Assembly: GCA_047971315.1 (NCBI GenBank)
Contig: JBKDZP010000007.1
Span: 7,494 to 71,493 of the forward strand
Source of the DNA: Bacilli bacterium
GTDB taxonomy: Bacteria; Bacillota_I; Bacilli_A; RF39; UBA660
Length of the DNA: 64,000 nucleotides
Direction: 5' to 3'
Shown here: positions 17,300-23,890 of the stretch, in pieces
Numbering within the stretch: the first letter of the stretch is position 1
Layout of the letters: the number at the start of each line of letters is the position of its first letter
Made by a program: the position numbers and the translations under genes
Notes under the pieces: model-generated
Told to the model about the DNA's origin: nothing
Seen by the model: only the letters and a program-made list of their open reading frames with translations
Databases searched by the model: none

Positions 17300-17713
17300 A
17301 TGAGAAAATATTATTTATTTATAATTAAAAATAATTACTTTAAAAATTATCAAAAAAAACCAAATATAATATATAAAAACTTAGAAAATATATATAAAAT
17401 TAGAAAATATGATTTTCCTTATGGAATAAATCTTTATCATCAATTATGTCAACCATTTGGTTTTAAAATACTTACAAATTATATAAATAATAAATTTGAT
17501 TATAAAAAAATATCTGAGAAAATAATTAAATTAGAATCAAATTTTGAAGTAACTTATATTCAAATTAACTATTCATCAGTAATTATAGTATCTAGTGAAA
17601 ATATGCCAGAAATATTTAAAACACTCTACATTTATAATAAAAATATATTTGTATGTGATTTTATAAATCAAGACTATTTTTGGTTAACAAAACAAATAAA
17701 ACTAATAAAATGA
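17300..17713 (+). CDS. Hypothetical protein
   Basis: 137 aa ORF, no recognisable motifs. Confidence 0.3.
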   Translation: MRKYYLFIIKNNYFKNYQKKPNIIYKNLENIYKIRKYDFPYGINLYHQLCQPFGFKILTNYINNKFDYKKISEKIIKLESNFEVTYIQINYSSVIIVSSENMPEIFKTLYIYNKNIFVCDFINQDYFWLTKQIKLIK

Positions 17714-17760
17714 AATTTTTGTCATCTAATTACATATAATAATTTAGGTAGGGTGAGGTT

Positions 17761-18126
17761 ATGAATAAAATTGATTTATTCAAAGAATTTGTTAAGAGAA
17801 ATCCTCAGCTAATTAAACATGTTAAAGAAGGAAATATGACTTGGCAAAAATATTTTGAAATATTTGACTTATATGGAGAAAATAGTAGTGAATGGAATCA
17901 ATATATAAATAAACAAGATGATTTAAAACAAGTATCTACAAATACATTATCATTTACAGATTTATTAGGTTTTTTTAAAGGCATGAATTTAGATGCGATG
18001 CAAGAGGGATTAAACAGTGTAGGAAGAGTTGTAAGTGTATTACAAGAACTAGGCGGAAAAGAAAATAATAGAGTTGCTAAACCAGAATATAAACCAAGAC
18101 CTTTATATAAACATTTTGAGGATTAA
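17761..18126 (+). CDS. Small conserved hypothetical protein (position matches ylbD/ylbE-like genes upstream of rsmD in Bacilli)
   Basis: 121 aa. Its stop overlaps the start of the next small ORF (taATGa). Assignment is by synteny only. Confidence 0.35.
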   Translation: MNKIDLFKEFVKRNPQLIKHVKEGNMTWQKYFEIFDLYGENSSEWNQYINKQDDLKQVSTNTLSFTDLLGFFKGMNLDAMQEGLNSVGRVVSVLQELGGKENNRVAKPEYKPRPLYKHFED

Positions 18127-18347
18127 TGACATTAGATATTCAATTTAAAATAAAAAATAATCCTAACTATAAAAAATACATTAGAGAAAATTCATGGTGG
18201 TATAAAACATTAAATCGAGACCCAGAAAAATTTAAAATTTTTGAAGAAAAAGTAAGAGAAGATTATAAGCTAAGAATTAGTGACAAAGTAGGAAAGGCAA
18301 TTGATACTTTTGAATTATTACAAAATTTAATGTCAGCTATAAAATAA
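18126..18347 (+). CDS. Small conserved hypothetical protein (ylbE-like by position)
   Basis: 73 aa, translationally coupled to the upstream ORF. Confidence 0.35.
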   Translation: MTLDIQFKIKNNPNYKKYIRENSWWYKTLNRDPEKFKIFEEKVREDYKLRISDKVGKAIDTFELLQNLMSAIK

Positions 18348-18381: not shown

Positions 18382-18912
18382 ATGAGAATAATAAGTGGTA
18401 AATTTAAAGGGAAAAAATTGATAGGTTTTGATATAGAAGGTACTAGACCAACAATGGATAGAATTAAAGAATCATTATTTGGAATGATTCAATCCAATTT
18501 AAAAAACAGTGTTTGTCTAGATCTATTTGCTGGTTCTGGTTCTTTAGGATTAGAAGCTTTAAGTAATGGTGCTAAGTGTTGTTATTTTGTTGATAATAAT
18601 AAAATTATACTTGATATTTTAAGTAAAAATTTAAAAGACATTAATAATGCTTATATAATAAAAGATAATTATGAAGAAGCTTTAAAACAATTTAAAAAAT
18701 TAAATATAAAGTTTGATTTAGTATTTCTAGATCCACCATACTTATTAAATTTAATAAATAATTCGCTTTTAAATTTAATAGAATTAGATTTACTTAGTAA
18801 AGAAGCTATTATTGTTTGTGAATATACACAAGAAAAAATAAATAATTATGATTTAAATTTAATTAAAGAAAAACAATATAAAGATAAAATAATAAAGATA
18901 TATCAAAAGTAA
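18382..18912 (+). CDS. rsmD: 16S rRNA (guanine966-N2)-methyltransferase RsmD
   Basis: DLFAGSGSLGLEALSNGA SAM-binding motif, VFLDPPY motif, ~176 aa. Confidence 0.8.
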   Translation: MRIISGKFKGKKLIGFDIEGTRPTMDRIKESLFGMIQSNLKNSVCLDLFAGSGSLGLEALSNGAKCCYFVDNNKIILDILSKNLKDINNAYIIKDNYEEALKQFKKLNIKFDLVFLDPPYLLNLINNSLLNLIELDLLSKEAIIVCEYTQEKINNYDLNLIKEKQYKDKIIKIYQK

Positions 18913-18984
18913 AATAAATTTTTTACTTTTTTTAAAGGATATTTTATAAATATTTTGTAAGATACAAGTAAGGAGGTAATAAAT

Positions 18985-21057
18985 ATTCAAAAATATCCTT
19001 TTATAAAACAACAAAATTTAAAAGATTGTGGAGCTGCCTCTCTTTGGATGATTGTAAAATACTATAACGGAGACATTAGTATTTCTAAATTAGCTGAAAT
19101 GAGTTATACAAATAAATTTGGGACAAGCGCTTATCATTTAGTTGAAACTCTAAAAAAAATAGGATTTGAATCAGAGGGAATAAAATTAGATTTAAATGAA
19201 TTAAAAAATTATAATCAATTTCCAGTAATTGCTCATACAACAGTTAATAAATACTTTGGACACTTTGTAGTTATTTATAAAATAGATAAAAATAATAACT
19301 TTATAATTGGTGATCCAAGTAGAAAAATAGTTAAAATAAAAAAAGAAGAATTTACTAAAATATATAATGGAATAGTTATAACTGCTAAACCAATTAAAAC
19401 GATTCCTAGATATTCAAAAAATAAATTTGTTCTAAATTATATTTTTAATATAATAATAAATAATAAATTATTTTTTATACTTATATTCATTTTTTCAATT
19501 TTATCAACTATTTTAACTATTTTTATAACATTTTATTTTCAATTTATGATTGATAGTATAACAAATCTACAAATAAATTTAATTAAAATATTTATGATTA
19601 GTTTATTTATACAATTGATAATTCTAATATTTAACTATATTAGAAATGAATTTATTATATTAATCAATAAAAAAATTGATGATAATTTAACTTTTAATGT
19701 TTTTAAAAAGATAATGTTACTTCCTTATCCATATTACAAAAATAGAACAACAGGAGAGGTTATTTCTAGAATAACAGATTTAGTTAAAATAAAAGATTTA
19801 ATAAGTGAAATTTTAATATTTAGTATAATTGATTTTATTTTATCACTACTTTCAGGTATTGTAATATTTAATATAAATCAAAAATTATTCTATTTTTCAT
19901 TAATAATATTAATTGTTCATTTCATACTTATTATTTTATTTAAAATGAAGAAGATAAATAAAATTGAAAAAGTATTAAGAAATAAAGATACAATTAATTC
20001 CATAATGATTGAAAGTATCAATGGGTTTGAAACAATAAAAGGACTAGGTGTTGAAAATATATTTATTAATAAATTTAAAATTAAATTTTTTAATTATACA
20101 AAAGAAATATTTAGTTTAGAAAAATTTCAAAATAAAGAAATATTCATTACAAATTTAATTAGTAATTTAAGCTTTTTGTTAATTATTTTTCTAGGAATTA
20201 TTTTGATAAAAAATAATCAATTATCGATAGGAGAATTAATTACAATTCAATTTCTATTGAATTTATTTTTAGAACCTATAAAAAAAATAATTAATTCAAG
20301 TACTAATATATTTGAAAGTATAGAATCAATAAAAAGAATTGATGAAATATTATTTATAGAAGAAGAAAAAATAGAATTAAGCAGTTTTAATGAAATACAA
20401 ATTAATTGTTTAACCTATAATCAGGGAAATATTAAACCAATTTTAAATAATATATGTCTTTCAATCAATAAATCAAATAAAATAATGCTTATAGGAAAAA
20501 GTGGAAGTGGAAAAAGTACTTTATTAAAAATTTTAAAAGGTTACTATAAAATAGAAGACAATCATGTATTTATTGATAATATTGATATAAATAAAATAAG
20601 TAATGAAAATATAAAAGATAATATTACTTTAGTAGCTGAAAAAGAAATACTATTTACTGATACCATTTATAATAATATTTTAGTTGATAGACAACTAAAT
20701 CAAAACGAATTTCTAGAAATTGTAGATATTTGTGAAATAAATGAAATAACTAAAAACAATAATTTTGGAATAAATATGTTTATAGAAGAAAATGGTTATA
20801 ATTTATCATTGGGAGAAAAAGAGCGCATTATATTAGCTAGAGCTTTAGTAAATAAATTTAAAATATTACTTATTGATGAAGGATTAAGCCAAGTAGATAC
20901 AAATATGGAAAGAAGAATAATAAAAAAACTATTTTCAAAATATAAAGATAAAATAATAATTATAATAACTCACAGAACAGATAATATGGATTTATTTAAT
21001 AAAGTTGTTCGAATAGAAGATGGAAATATCTTAGAAATTTTAAAAAAGGAGGATTAA
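18985..21057 (+). CDS. Bacteriocin-processing ABC transporter with N-terminal C39 peptidase domain
   Basis: The C39 catalytic region QQNLKDCGAASLWMIVKYYNG and His-region FGHFVVIY are present. The Cys lies upstream of the first ATG at 19048. The frame is open from the stop at 18958, and an AGGAGG RBS at 18971..18976 suggests an ATT (18985) or ATA start. TMD with 6 helices. NBD has Walker A GKSGSGKST, signature LSLGEKERI, Walker B ILLIDEGLSQVD. Confidence 0.85.
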   Translation: MQKYPFIKQQNLKDCGAASLWMIVKYYNGDISISKLAEMSYTNKFGTSAYHLVETLKKIGFESEGIKLDLNELKNYNQFPVIAHTTVNKYFGHFVVIYKIDKNNNFIIGDPSRKIVKIKKEEFTKIYNGIVITAKPIKTIPRYSKNKFVLNYIFNIIINNKLFFILIFIFSILSTILTIFITFYFQFMIDSITNLQINLIKIFMISLFIQLIILIFNYIRNEFIILINKKIDDNLTFNVFKKIMLLPYPYYKNRTTGEVISRITDLVKIKDLISEILIFSIIDFILSLLSGIVIFNINQKLFYFSLIILIVHFILIILFKMKKINKIEKVLRNKDTINSIMIESINGFETIKGLGVENIFINKFKIKFFNYTKEIFSLEKFQNKEIFITNLISNLSFLLIIFLGIILIKNNQLSIGELITIQFLLNLFLEPIKKIINSSTNIFESIESIKRIDEILFIEEEKIELSSFNEIQINCLTYNQGNIKPILNNICLSINKSNKIMLIGKSGSGKSTLLKILKGYYKIEDNHVFIDNIDINKISNENIKDNITLVAEKEILFTDTIYNNILVDRQLNQNEFLEIVDICEINEITKNNNFGINMFIEENGYNLSLGEKERIILARALVNKFKILLIDEGLSQVDTNMERRIIKKLFSKYKDKIIIIITHRTDNMDLFNKVVRIEDGNILEILKKED

Positions 21058-21123
21058 ATTTATGTTTAGATATATTAGATTAATAATTGCAGCATTACTT
21101 AAATTTATGTAGGAGGAACAAAA

Positions 21124-21261
21124 ATGACAATCGAAAAAGAAGAATTATATAAAATTACAGGTGGTGGTATATCATTTGGGTGGTCAATGTTTATTGGTGG
21201 AGCAATTTCTTTAATAATAGGAATAATTGATGGATATATTCGCCCATTAAAATGTAATTAA
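21124..21261 (+). CDS. Double-glycine-leader bacteriocin precursor peptide A (45 aa; not in ORF track)
   Basis: AGGAGG RBS at 21111..21116, 7 nt before ATG. MTIEKEELYKITGG|GISFGWSMFIGGAISLIIGIIDGYIRPLKCN. The leader has the consensus Glu-8, Leu-7, Ile-4, Gly-2, Gly-1. The mature part is GxxxG-rich and amphiphilic. Confidence 0.75.
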   Translation: MTIEKEELYKITGGGISFGWSMFIGGAISLIIGIIDGYIRPLKCN

Positions 21262-21270
21262 GGAGGATTA

Positions 21271-21432
21271 ATGAAATTAAATAATAAGGAACTTTATAAC
21301 ATAATTGGCGGAGCAATATCAGCATCAATGATAGGATATTTGGTTAAAGGAATAAATTCATTACTTGATTTAGGTAGAAGTCTAGGTAGTGCAATTAGAA
21401 GAAGCCAAAATAATAATTTATGTTCATTTTAA
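21271..21432 (+). CDS. Double-glycine-leader bacteriocin precursor peptide B (53 aa; not in ORF track)
   Basis: AGGAGG RBS at 21261..21266 overlaps the peptide A stop. MKLNNKELYNIIGG|AISASMIGYLVKGINSLLDLGRSLGSAIRRSQNNNLCSF. Same leader consensus. Cationic mature peptide with GxxxG/SxxxG motifs. Confidence 0.75.
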   Translation: MKLNNKELYNIIGGAISASMIGYLVKGINSLLDLGRSLGSAIRRSQNNNLCSF

Positions 21433-21435
21433 AAT

Positions 21436-21465
21436 AAAAAGTCAAATTTTGACTTTTTTATTTTA
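21436..21465 (+). terminator. Rho-independent terminator closing the bacteriocin module
   Basis: aaagtc...gacttt hairpin followed by ttttttatttt. Confidence 0.6.
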
Positions 21466-21704
21466 ATAATATACATTTTTTTTAATGTTGTATAAAGTGA
21501 AGTAGAAATACTTAAATAATAAACATATTTAGAAAATAATAATATAAATAAAGAATTTATAATATATAAAAAAAGTATTTATATTCACTTGAATAGTAAA
21601 AAGCAAAATAATTAGCTTTTTTTCATTATTTTTAAAAAAAATTTGTTGAAATATAGTAAAAACAGTGTTATAATACCAATAGTTTACAGAAGGGAGGGAA
21701 TACA

Positions 21705-21899
21705 ATGACTAAAGTAATCGTAAGAAATGGAAATGTTGACAGCGCCCTTCGTATGTTTAAACAAAAAAGTGCCAAAAATGGAACACTTAAAGAAGTACGT
21801 GAAAGACAAGAAGGTTATCTAAAACCAGGTGCTAAAAGAAGAAAAGAAAAAAAAGAAGCTATCAAAAATAGCCACAAAAAAAATAGAGAAAATTATTAG
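21705..21899 (+). CDS. rpsU: 30S ribosomal protein S21
   Basis: VIVRNGNVDSALRMFKQKSAKNGTLKEVRER...KPGAKRRKEKKEA matches S21. GGGAGGGAA RBS. Confidence 0.9.
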   Translation: MTKVIVRNGNVDSALRMFKQKSAKNGTLKEVRERQEGYLKPGAKRRKEKKEAIKNSHKKNRENY

Positions 21900-22378: not shown

Positions 22379-22427
22379 AACGACACTTTTAATAGTGTTT
22401 TTTTTTTATACTATTAGTGGTGATAAC

Positions 22428-23204
22428 ATGAAAATTTATTTAGACTTTATCTTCATTATTAATTTTTCTTTTGATTTTCTACTTTTAATTGCAGTTGCAA
22501 CATTACTTAAAAGAAATATAAAAATTAAAAAAATTATATTTGGAAGTATATTTGGTGGATTTAGTATATTTACATTGTTTTTAGAAATTAATAATTTAGA
22601 ACTATTTATTTTTAAAATAATAATAAGCATTTTTATGGTTTTAATCACATTCTCATTTAGAAATTTTAAATATACATTAACTAATTTAATATATTTATAT
22701 ATTGTTAGCATGGTTCTTGGAGGATTTTTATATTTCTTAAATATTCAATTTTCGTATTCACATAATGGATTAATATTTTTTCATAATGAATTTAGTATTA
22801 ATATAATAGTTTTAGTCATATTATCACCAATCATTATATATACTTATGTTAAGGAATGTTTAAATTTAAAAACCACCTTTTCAAAATATTATAAAGTGGA
22901 TATCCAGTTAGAAAAAGAAACTCTAAATTTAAATGGATTTTTAGATACTGGAAATAAACTGGTAGATCCAATATTTAAAAAACCAATTATCCTAATAAAT
23001 GAAGAATGTTTAAAATATAAGTATAATTATTTTTTGGTTCCAATTACTACAGTAAGTGAAAACAGTATGTTAAAGTGTATTAAAGTAAAAAAAATCAATA
23101 TAAAAACAGTTGGCGAAAAAAAAGACGTATTAGTTGGTTTACTACCTAAAAAAATACAAATGGAAGGAATTGATTGTATATTACAATCTAAATTGGTAGA
23201 ATAA
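22428..23204 (+). CDS. spoIIGA: Sporulation sigma-E processing aspartic protease SpoIIGA
   Basis: Polytopic N-terminal membrane domain plus C-terminal GFLDTGNKLVDP (DTG aspartic protease motif). Start trimmed to the ATG with GTGGTGA RBS. Immediately upstream of sigE. Confidence 0.75.
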   Translation: MKIYLDFIFIINFSFDFLLLIAVATLLKRNIKIKKIIFGSIFGGFSIFTLFLEINNLELFIFKIIISIFMVLITFSFRNFKYTLTNLIYLYIVSMVLGGFLYFLNIQFSYSHNGLIFFHNEFSINIIVLVILSPIIIYTYVKECLNLKTTFSKYYKVDIQLEKETLNLNGFLDTGNKLVDPIFKKPIILINEECLKYKYNYFLVPITTVSENSMLKCIKVKKINIKTVGEKKDVLVGLLPKKIQMEGIDCILQSKLVE

Positions 23205-23890
23205 TGCTAAAAAAAATATTAAAATTATTATCAAGACTTTATGAAAAAAATATTTTCTTTGTTGGAAGTTCAGATAAATTGCCTGAACCATTAAGTAAAG
23301 AAGATGAAACTGCATATGTATTAAAATCAATGGATGGAGATACTTTTGCTAGAAACAAATTAATAGAACATAATTTAAGATTAGTAGTATTTTTATCAAA
23401 ACGATATGAAAATACTGGAATAGATTTAGAAGATCTTGTAAGTATTGGTACTATTGGACTAATAAAAGGAGTTAATACTTATAAATTAGATAAAAATATA
23501 AAGCTTGCTACTTATGTATCTCGATGTATTGATAATGAAATATTAATGTATTTAAGAAAAAATAAAAAAAGAAGAAGTGAAGTTAGTTTTGAAGATAGTT
23601 TAAGTTATGATTCAGAAGGAAATGAATTACATCTTGAAGATATTTTAGGAACTGATGAAAATATAGTAACAAAAAGAATAGAAGAAGAAACTGAAAAAAA
23701 TATCCTTAAAGAAGAAATTGATAAATTAAATGACAGAGATAAAAAAATAATGATGTTAAGATATGGAATGTTTGGTCAAGAAGAAATGACACAAAAAGAT
23801 GTAGCAATTAAATTAGGCATAAGTCAATCATATATATCTAGAATAGAAAAAAAAGTTATAAAAAAAATAAAAACTTATGTAAAAATATAA
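23204..23890 (+). CDS. sigE: RNA polymerase sporulation sigma factor SigE (pro-sigma-E)
   Basis: Pro-sequence ...FVGSSDKLPEPLSKEDE, region 2 RLVVFLSKRYENTGIDLEDLVSIGTIGLIKGV, region 4 KDVAIKLGISQSYISRIEKK. Start overlaps the spoIIGA stop. Confidence 0.8.
   Translation: MLKKILKLLSRLYEKNIFFVGSSDKLPEPLSKEDETAYVLKSMDGDTFARNKLIEHNLRLVVFLSKRYENTGIDLEDLVSIGTIGLIKGVNTYKLDKNIKLATYVSRCIDNEILMYLRKNKKRRSEVSFEDSLSYDSEGNELHLEDILGTDENIVTKRIEEETEKNILKEEIDKLNDRDKKIMMLRYGMFGQEEMTQKDVAIKLGISQSYISRIEKKVIKKIKTYVKI

Follow-up and report, generated by a model that had tools for sequence, protein, structure and literature searches.

A stretch of 64,000 nucleotides (nt) of contig JBKDZP010000007.1, from a Bacilli bacterium of the order RF39 (assembly GCA_047971315.1) and hereafter called the window, carries a cassette of four tandem genes between rsmD and rpsU. 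This cassette is one small operon, encoding a peptidase-containing ATP-binding cassette (ABC) exporter (PCAT), a micro-protein of 16 amino acids (aa) and two peptides with double-glycine leaders. All four reading frames are intact and conserved, and the genes lie on one strand with coupled Shine-Dalgarno (SD) sequences, in the order rsmD, exporter, micro-open reading frame (micro-ORF), peptide 1, peptide 2, hairpin and rpsU. The features of the cassette, in window coordinates, are the following.

18936..18964, forward strand: bipartite promoter-like motif, AGGATAT (-35-like), 18-nt spacer, TAAGATA (-10-like)
18936-18939 and 18958-18964, forward strand: the AGGA and TAAGATA halves of this motif, with AGGA 34 nt before the exporter SD
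18985..21057, forward strand: PCAT exporter, 690 aa, with an N-terminal C39 Cys-protease, a six-helix ABC membrane domain and an ATPase
21062..21112, forward strand: micro-ORF, 16 aa, MFRYIRLIIAALLKFM, cationic (+3), hydrophobic and amphipathic, with no leader
21124..21261, forward strand: peptide 1 precursor, 45 aa, made up of a double-glycine leader (14 aa) and the mature peptide GISFGWSMFIGGAISLIIGIIDGYIRPLKCN (31 aa)
21271..21432, forward strand: peptide 2 precursor, 53 aa, made up of a double-glycine leader (14 aa) and the mature peptide AISASMIGYLVKGINSLLDLGRSLGSAIRRSQNNNLCSF (39 aa)
21429..21468, forward strand: probable intrinsic terminator, a hairpin rich in A and U, AAAAAGUCAAA-UUU-UGACUUUUU, with a U-run after it

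Two small ORFs had been proposed from the sequence alone (the original prediction), and both are confirmed at the positions given above for peptides 1 and 2. That they are real genes is supported by a Logan assembly of 99.955% identity that contains both of them, by homologues that are found together in about 80 species, and by low ratios of nonsynonymous to synonymous change (pN/pS of 0.32 for peptide 1 and 0.33 for peptide 2). Their description as unannotated holds for the ORF track that had been consulted but not for NCBI, where both are present as hypothetical proteins (ACK5HP_02705 and ACK5HP_02710). Apart from these two, no small ORF with a double-glycine leader was found in the 64-kb window. 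Both peptides and the exporter are under purifying selection.

Exporter, peptides and micro-protein

The gene adjoining the peptides is, as had been proposed, a C39-peptidase ABC exporter, and it is intact. All three domains are matched in Pfam (Peptidase_C39, PF03412, 5.7e-36; ABC_membrane, PF00664, 3.3e-36; ABC_tran, PF00005, 1.8e-22), and the protein aligns over its full length with PCAT1 of Clostridium thermocellum (4RY2; E = 7e-95, starting at residue 2) and with ComA of Streptococcus (8HF4; E about 5e-85). The protease triad aligned with that of PCAT1 consists of Cys (DCGAAS), His (GHFVVIY) and Asp (GDPS), and the translation also shows the ATPase motifs GKSGSGKST (Walker A), LSLGEKER (signature motif), LLIDEG (Walker B) and ITHR (H-loop). 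The exporter therefore shares its three-domain architecture, triad and ATPase motifs with PCAT1 and ComA, but differs from them in its divergence, in starting with ATT, and in belonging to a lineage without an accessory protein of the ComB/LcnD type, where the membrane protein X (described below), the micro-protein or nothing is found instead. Its best NCBIfam family is “peptide cleavage/export ABC transporter”. TIGR01193 (bacteriocin_ABC) is still the best-scoring family, with 378.8 bits, and since this misses the curated cut-off of 523.85 bits, we regard the exporter as a divergent branch of the PCATs.

A complete C39 domain, including the catalytic Cys, is obtained only if translation begins at the ATT codon at 18985. 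There is no in-frame ATG, GTG or TTG 5' of the catalytic Cys, and the first ATG (19048) lies 3' of the Cys codon (DCGAAS), so that a gene call starting there would drop the catalytic residue; for this reason the start has been placed at ATT. This codon is located 8 nt after a perfect AAGGAGG (18970-18976) and aligns with the start of the related proteins, (M/V/L)KKYPF, a position at which about nine other species also carry an Ile codon. On these sequence features, initiation at ATT 18985 is the most likely. The public gene call for the exporter in locus L001 is the truncated form, of 669 aa.

The leaders MTIEKEELYKITGG (peptide 1) and MKLNNKELYNIIGG (peptide 2) fit the double-glycine consensus as had been claimed, positions -4, -7 and -12 being I or L, position -8 being E, and the leader ending in GG (-2 and -1); both peptide families keep G13 and G14 in all or nearly all of their members. 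Perfect ribosome-binding sites at ideal spacing had been described for both genes. This is accurate for peptide 1, where AGGAGG is found 7 nt from the ATG, but not for peptide 2, where the same sequence stands just 4 nt from the ATG, a short distance; it overlaps the stop codon of peptide 1, suggesting translational coupling.

Conservation is concentrated in the C-terminal halves of the mature peptides. In peptide 1, columns G33, D36, G37, P41 and C44 are invariant among 62 species, and the family motif is ..IG(I/V)IDG(Y/F)xRPLxC, with the tail IDGYxRPLxC. In peptide 2, the invariant columns among 57 species are L32, L34, G35, R36, S37, L38, G39, A41 and C51, the family motif is ..L(D/E)LGRSLG(S/T)A(I/L)RR..C, and the invariant core is LxLGRSLGxA. 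Profile searches at E <= 1e-3 collect 1652 clusters for peptide 1, where clustering was at 90% identity, and 405 for peptide 2, where it was at 50%. By their sequences, the mature peptides are two undescribed families. The original prediction saw no obvious identity to named bacteriocins, which is correct for the mature regions (ten mature peptide 1 sequences gave no match at E <= 1).

The expectation of helical peptides with helix-packing motifs is supported. GxxxG-type motifs occur in both mature peptides, for instance G19IIDG23 in the first and G21RSLG25 in the second, and the predicted structures are helices, one hydrophobic and the other amphipathic and cationic. In AlphaFold2 monomer models built from the family alignments, peptide 1 forms a helix over residues 18-43, with a mean predicted local distance difference test score (pLDDT) of 94-96 for residues 21-40, and its leader forms a short helix (residues 5-10); peptide 2 is modelled as one long helix (residues 5-46). 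Mature peptide 1 is hydrophobic and glycine-rich, with a transmembrane-like stretch of 19 residues of mean hydrophobicity 0.80. The conserved core of peptide 2 is amphipathic (hydrophobic moment, muH, of 0.69 for GINSLLDLGRSLGSAIRR), and its mature form has a net charge of +3. The single Cys that had been noticed near each C-terminus is nearly invariant: exactly one Cys per mature peptide is found in 72/74 species sequences of peptide 1 and 78/81 of peptide 2, and in wider relatives the C-terminal Cys is kept in 124/124 and 157/159 sequences, respectively.

Overlooked in the original inventory of small genes was the micro-ORF, which lies in the 66-bp gap between exporter and peptide 1. It is preceded at a distance of 9 nt by its own AAGGAGG (21046-21052), its stop codon shares nucleotides with the SD of peptide 1, and its product has a muH of 0.60. 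An SD-preceded ORF of 14-21 aa, with M(F/L)R(R) followed by hydrophobic residues, occurs in 18/18 species loci that have a gap of 40-190 bp between exporter and peptide 1. These micro-ORFs are more hydrophobic than random short ORFs of the same loci (Mann-Whitney p = 1e-6), and Asp or Glu is present in 0/20 of them as against 51% of the null ORFs; pN/pS is 0.35, a value that comes from four pairs only. We count the micro-ORF as a real gene because of its presence in all 18 loci, its biased composition and its low pN/pS. More speculatively, the character of its sequence makes the micro-protein a candidate for an immunity or accessory role.

Three architectures can be distinguished among 76 species loci: 41 have a gap of 370-450 bp between exporter and peptide 1, 18 (the window included) have the micro-ORF, and 17 have no gap. 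Most of the 370-450-bp gaps encode a single-pass membrane protein of 130-153 aa, here called X (for example L002:8411-8869, L005:9555-10001, L007:9475-9864, and about 40 other loci), which is translationally coupled to both exporter and peptide 1 and carries a conserved terminal helix, KTTLxxEIxxxIKKG. Searches for relatives of X, with 22 members against Pfam and with a profile against the PDB, returned noise only; speculatively, X might be a miniature accessory protein of the HlyD/ComB type. A degenerate remnant resembling the ectodomain of X comes after the micro-ORF in L019, L061, L063 and L134, of which three belong to the 18, pointing to the micro-protein as a vestige of the membrane anchor of X.

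A further gene of 48-62 aa, absent from the window, overlaps the end of peptide 2 in 13 X-type loci (L002:9180-9356, L027:8150, L030:8147, L033:3411, L047:8150, L057:3957, L065:6621, L075:7511, L078:3079, L088:8153 and others). Its product has no double-glycine leader; a membrane helix is followed by the peptide-2-like sequence G..(I/V)GT.(I/L)R and often by a terminal Cys. Such a product might act in immunity by mimicking peptide 2. Around the pair, the kind of small membrane gene thus differs by lineage, being X, the micro-ORF, or the 48-62-aa gene after peptide 2. The immunity and accessory genes of bacteriocin loci usually vary between lineages. In one lineage, peptides 1 and 2 are split by a gene for a 218-aa S-adenosylmethionine-dependent methyltransferase (L011:59-943, L012:160-1216).

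The unusual exporter start and the missing X raise the question of whether the cassette is decaying in this genome, the exporter ATG having been lost, X having shrunk to a 16-codon stub and the peptides no longer being exported. Such decay would agree with the lack of ATG, GTG or TTG before the catalytic Cys and with the absence here of a protein that is present in 41 related species. We nevertheless consider it very unlikely, since the frames are intact and Ile-codon starts recur elsewhere. The exporter frame stays open for 690 codons in DNA of 15-20% GC, where chance stops are frequent, and its catalytic and ATPase motifs are intact; its Ile-codon start, found again in about nine species, has a perfect SD 8 nt upstream; and the micro-ORF, with its selected composition, is missing from none of the 18 loci that share this architecture. 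The cassette illustrates two blind spots of annotation, namely a conserved gene of only 16 codons, and an ATT-initiated exporter that callers restricted to the usual start codons truncate past its active-site Cys.

Distribution and inheritance of the cassette

Scanning one genome per species with a back-translated alignment of peptide 2 identified this peptide in 83 genomes, giving about 80 species-level carriers of the cassette. They were recovered from the guts of humans, mice, rabbits, ruminants or chickens, or else from digesters, and are labelled in NCBI as Bacilli, Mollicutes, Tenericutes or Bacillales, with a few that are apparently mislabelled. Among the latter, L021, L039, L042, L045, L049, L053, L055, L057, L059, L061, L063 and L073 bear the titles “uncultured Muribaculaceae bacterium” or “Clostridium sp.”, which are probably wrong because the ylbD, ylbE, rsmD and S21 sequences group with those of low-GC Bacilli. 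One of the carriers is Candidatus Fimihabitans intestinipullorum, which belongs to family CAG-822 of the GTDB order RF39 (PMC8035907).

The order exporter, peptide 1, peptide 2 is kept in nearly all loci, and the two peptide families co-occur, adjoining the exporter, in all complete loci. In most cases the surroundings are kept as well (ylbD-ylbE-rsmD, cassette, rpsU-yqeY), with rsmD directly 5' of the exporter and rpsU 3' of peptide 2. In the 38 species with all genes, pairwise distances computed from ylbD, ylbE and rsmD together are correlated with exporter distances (Mantel r = 0.85) and with peptide distances (r = 0.74); p is <= 0.0005 in both comparisons. The mean p-distance is 0.44 for the peptides, 0.445 for the housekeeping neighbours and 0.62 for the exporter.

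As an unbiased sample, metagenome contigs were searched with ylbE as the anchor and lineages with enough downstream DNA were retained. The cassette follows rsmD in about two thirds of these lineages and is missing from about one third, so it is dispensable. Lineages without the cassette have other genes after rsmD (e.g. murG..ftsZ-spoIIGA-sigE) and no rpsU nearby, and an empty rsmD-rpsU junction was seen in none of these cassette-less relatives. The full order in one of them, L174, is rsmD followed by murG-murB-divIB-ftsA-ftsZ-spoIIGA-sigE.

The position between rsmD and rpsU had been read as the mark of an inserted accessory cassette. This view has to be given up, since the cassette occupies the same site in about 80 species and has diverged together with its neighbours. 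A recent insertion was rejected on the same synteny and Mantel correlation, and also because there is no contrast in GC content between the cassette and its surroundings and no empty site. A plasmid origin was rejected because a tblastn search of peptide 2 against 72,556 plasmids gave no match. The cassette is old, chromosomal, vertically inherited, and widespread but dispensable in uncultured low-GC gut Bacilli.

Relation to bacteriocins and candidate functions

The reading that we favour, with a confidence only a little better than even, is that the cassette produces a PCAT-exported, membrane-active, two-peptide bacteriocin-like pair. It is favoured because of the intact exporter, the operon layout, the properties of the two helices, the annotation of related families, the co-occurrence of the peptides, the selection acting on them and the pattern of Cys residues. 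By analogy with PCAT1 and ComA, the C39 domain would bind the leader helix and cut after Gly-Gly, and the ABC core would then export the mature peptides of 31 and 39 aa, with masses of 3313 and 4141 Da respectively. From the sequences and the models, mature peptide 1 is predicted to insert into the membrane as a glycine-rich hydrophobic helix and mature peptide 2 to bind the membrane surface as a cationic amphipathic helix. The two may pair through their invariant C-terminal segments, probably by a Cys-Cys disulfide, into a membrane-active heterodimer that would act on gut competitors in the manner of a class IIb two-peptide bacteriocin. The 16-aa micro-protein might, more speculatively, protect the producer or assist the exporter.

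The label class IIb had been given to the pair in the original prediction. It is plausible. Layout, helices and relatives that score near the cut-off of TIGR03949 (class IIb, lactobin A/cerein 7B family) agree with it, the similarity to this family is in the leader only, and no immunity gene is recognisable in the window, the candidates being the micro-ORF here and X or the 48-62-aa gene in relatives. As in lactococcin G, plantaricin EF/JK and the TIGR03949 systems, two adjacent genes with double-glycine leaders accompany a C39-ABC exporter, and the mature peptides are helical and cationic, with GxxxG/SxxxG motifs. The cassette differs from these systems in that no known family shows detectable similarity to its mature regions, that no immunity gene of known type is adjacent, that its locus is fixed and vertical across a deep clade rather than patchy or plasmid-borne, and that each peptide has one invariant Cys, suggesting, from sequence, a covalent heterodimer. 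We know of no characterised class IIb pair with one invariant Cys per peptide, and a search of the literature found no relevant reports on covalent two-peptide bacteriocins or on bacteriocins of RF39. A conserved chromosomal two-peptide system does exist in Streptococcus pneumoniae, where the fratricide bacteriocin CibAB(C) is under an alternative sigma factor. It belongs to core physiology, is not mobile, and has a small membrane immunity protein. CibAB differs from the present pair in leaving the cell through the competence exporter, whose gene lies in another part of the genome, and no sequence relationship between the two was seen, no search aimed at one having been made.

Matches to bacteriocin families score higher among some relatives than in the window. 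TIGR03949 is matched at E <= 0.1 by 55/62 peptide 1 relatives, and 24/62 come up to roughly its cut-off (best E 4.2e-8); its best E among peptide 2 relatives is 3.8e-4. Pfam Bacteriocin_IIc is matched by 22/62 peptide 1 relatives, and the bacteriocin signal family TIGR01847 (bacteriocin_sig) at E <= 0.1 by 24/62 peptide 1 and 7/57 peptide 2 relatives. NCBI or JGI entries for some of the homologues already bear the name “class IIb bacteriocin, lactobin A/cerein 7B family”. Peptide 1 of the window scores 16.3 bits against TIGR03949 (cut-off 21.5) and 16.9 bits against LcnG-beta (cut-off 29.4), and peptide 2 scores 13.4 bits against TIGR01847 (cut-off 15.7), where peptide 1 is not listed. The Bacteriocin_IIc match of the window's own peptides is also under the cut-off.

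A series of observations speaks against a bacteriocin. The window peptides score below every curated bacteriocin cut-off, and ten peptide 1 sequences reduced to their mature parts gave no NCBIfam match even at E <= 1; as the matches vanish without the leader, homology indicates a PCAT substrate and not an antimicrobial. No known immunity family is recognisable in the cassette in the window, and in about 17 species both X and the micro-ORF are missing. Patchiness, mobility and fast evolution are usual in bacteriocin loci, whereas this one keeps its position and is passed on vertically (Mantel r = 0.85 for the exporter and 0.74 for the peptides), has no peptide 2 match among plasmids, and encodes peptides that diverge as slowly as the housekeeping neighbours and more slowly than their own exporter. 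The carriers, finally, are all uncultured metagenome-assembled genomes. Further points of this kind concern the disulfide and are given below.

Vertical inheritance, slowly evolving peptides and the lack of a recognisable immunity gene keep another explanation alive, namely that the exported pair is not antimicrobial but a near-core, lineage-specific physiological factor, released or inserted in a membrane as a heterodimer, with a role in the producer's own envelope, in development (such as stationary phase or sporulation) or in interaction with the host. This we consider possible but doubtful. It would account for fixed synteny and co-divergence with housekeeping genes over about 80 species, for invariant mature motifs that change at the rate of the neighbouring genes, and for mature regions unrelated to known bacteriocins, and it would sit well with the conserved promoter-like motif, which is not of sigma-70 type and whose AGGA half recalls that of sigma-H promoters. 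The -10-like half, however, is unlike sigma-H, and there is no second site in the window. Also against a physiological factor stand a cassette missing from roughly one third of related lineages, and hence dispensable, the absence of any receptor or two-component system nearby, and a physico-chemical profile that is that of membrane-active toxins.

Double-glycine peptides may also be signals, and the pair could in principle be quorum-sensing or competence pheromones of the ComC/BlpC kind, with the exporter as processing enzyme and a histidine kinase as sensor. The weak matches to ComC and to the bacteriocin signal family come from the leaders (ComC reaches 13 bits where the cut-off is 20.4, and the match is confined to the leader), and the exporter does resemble ComA. 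However, no histidine kinase or response regulator is encoded in the cassette or its conserved flanks in any of the loci examined, and mature peptides of 31 and 39 aa, one with a transmembrane-like helix, are unlike known pheromones. With no linked kinase or regulator, and with peptides this long and membrane-like, in which moreover co-evolution and paired Cys residues would not be expected of pheromones, a signalling role of this type appears highly improbable.

Under the favoured bacteriocin-like reading, the Cys residues deserve particular attention. A disulfide between the two peptides had been suggested, and this part of the proposal has met with mixed results. In L176, represented by two samples, peptide 2 has no Cys and its partner peptide 1 has none either (..DGLVTPIYNN), a paired loss that is what a shared disulfide predicts. 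Against it stand L178, where peptide 1 retains its Cys and peptide 2 has none, an anaerobic habitat, and the lack of a thiol oxidase linked to the cassette. L178 is a divergent relative on a contig of 626 bp (L178:1-626), with a long Arg-rich tail on peptide 2. The gene call of its source passes two TGA codons within the peptide-2-like gene, suggesting an organism that reads TGA as Trp (code 4). With L176 in agreement and L178 in contradiction, the inter-peptide disulfide, which is proposed from sequence, is reasonable but unproven. A more complete scheme, in which a transmembrane and an amphipathic helix form a disulfide-linked heterodimer, the micro-protein serves as immunity factor or chaperone, and the whole is a near-core, vertically inherited trait of an order-level clade of genome-reduced gut Bacilli, we put forward tentatively and think rather unlikely to hold in every part.

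RF39-like Bacilli are common gut inhabitants of humans and animals; none has ever been brought into culture, and next to nothing is known of their ecology. A secreted pair encoded at a fixed locus in most of them would offer a synthesisable handle on their competition or communication with neighbours. Should an obligatory inter-chain disulfide exist in these unmodified peptides of 31 and 39 aa, it would represent a new design of two-peptide bacteriocin. Under the more complete scheme given above, the pair would be either the first covalent two-peptide bacteriocin or a new kind of physiological factor secreted by a peptidase-containing exporter.

Regulatory signals and flanking genes

No good promoter was found in a sigma-70 scan of the spacer between rsmD and the exporter. 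The bipartite motif located there was searched for in relatives with the pattern AGG[AT]-N17-19-[TA]A[TAC][GCA][TA]T[AT], and is present in 25/29 related rsmD-exporter intergenic regions compared with a mean of 1.2 in shuffled sequences. Its form in relatives is AGGAwwT, about 18 nt, and (T/A)A(T/A)G(T/A)TA, with AGGA placed 34 nt before the SD in typical loci. The AGGA half recalls sigma-H promoters by their Bacillus subtilis consensus, and the -10-like half does not match sigma-H. The motif does not occur a second time in the window. Many relatives have a terminator hairpin between rsmD and the motif, and the cassette therefore probably has a promoter of its own.

The hairpin and T-run that had been described after peptide 2 are upheld as a probable terminator, with a folding free energy of -11.2 kcal/mol and z = -5.2 (0/200 shuffles fold as well), although a scan for the GC-rich terminator consensus fails to detect it because it has too few G-C pairs.

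The two flanking genes, which lie outside the cassette, are assigned as follows.

18382..18912, forward strand: rsmD (TIGR00095, 148.9 bits, cut-off 117.5), upstream flank
21705..21899, forward strand: rpsU, ribosomal protein S21 (TIGR00030, 59.4 bits, cut-off 28.95), downstream flank

A strong promoter of sigma-70 type precedes rpsU (TTGAAA-17-TATAAT at 21646-21674, 11/12 matches). The window as a whole is AT-rich (23.5% GC), and has no matches to Rfam elements or tRNAs. In window ORFs of at least 200 aa, the codon CGG is used 0 times in 16,840 codons and AGG 24 times; a count of zero for CGG neither shows nor excludes a reassignment. In related uncultured Bacilli of the order RFN20, CGG or AGG has been reassigned (PMC8629427). 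Sporulation genes are found near the cassette (window positions 22395-23890 and 17300-18347), namely spoIIGA, sigE, ylbD (coat) and ylbE, together with a weak SirA-like ORF, and given spoIIGA, sigE, ylbD and ylbE in the neighbourhood, this low-GC host probably still sporulates.

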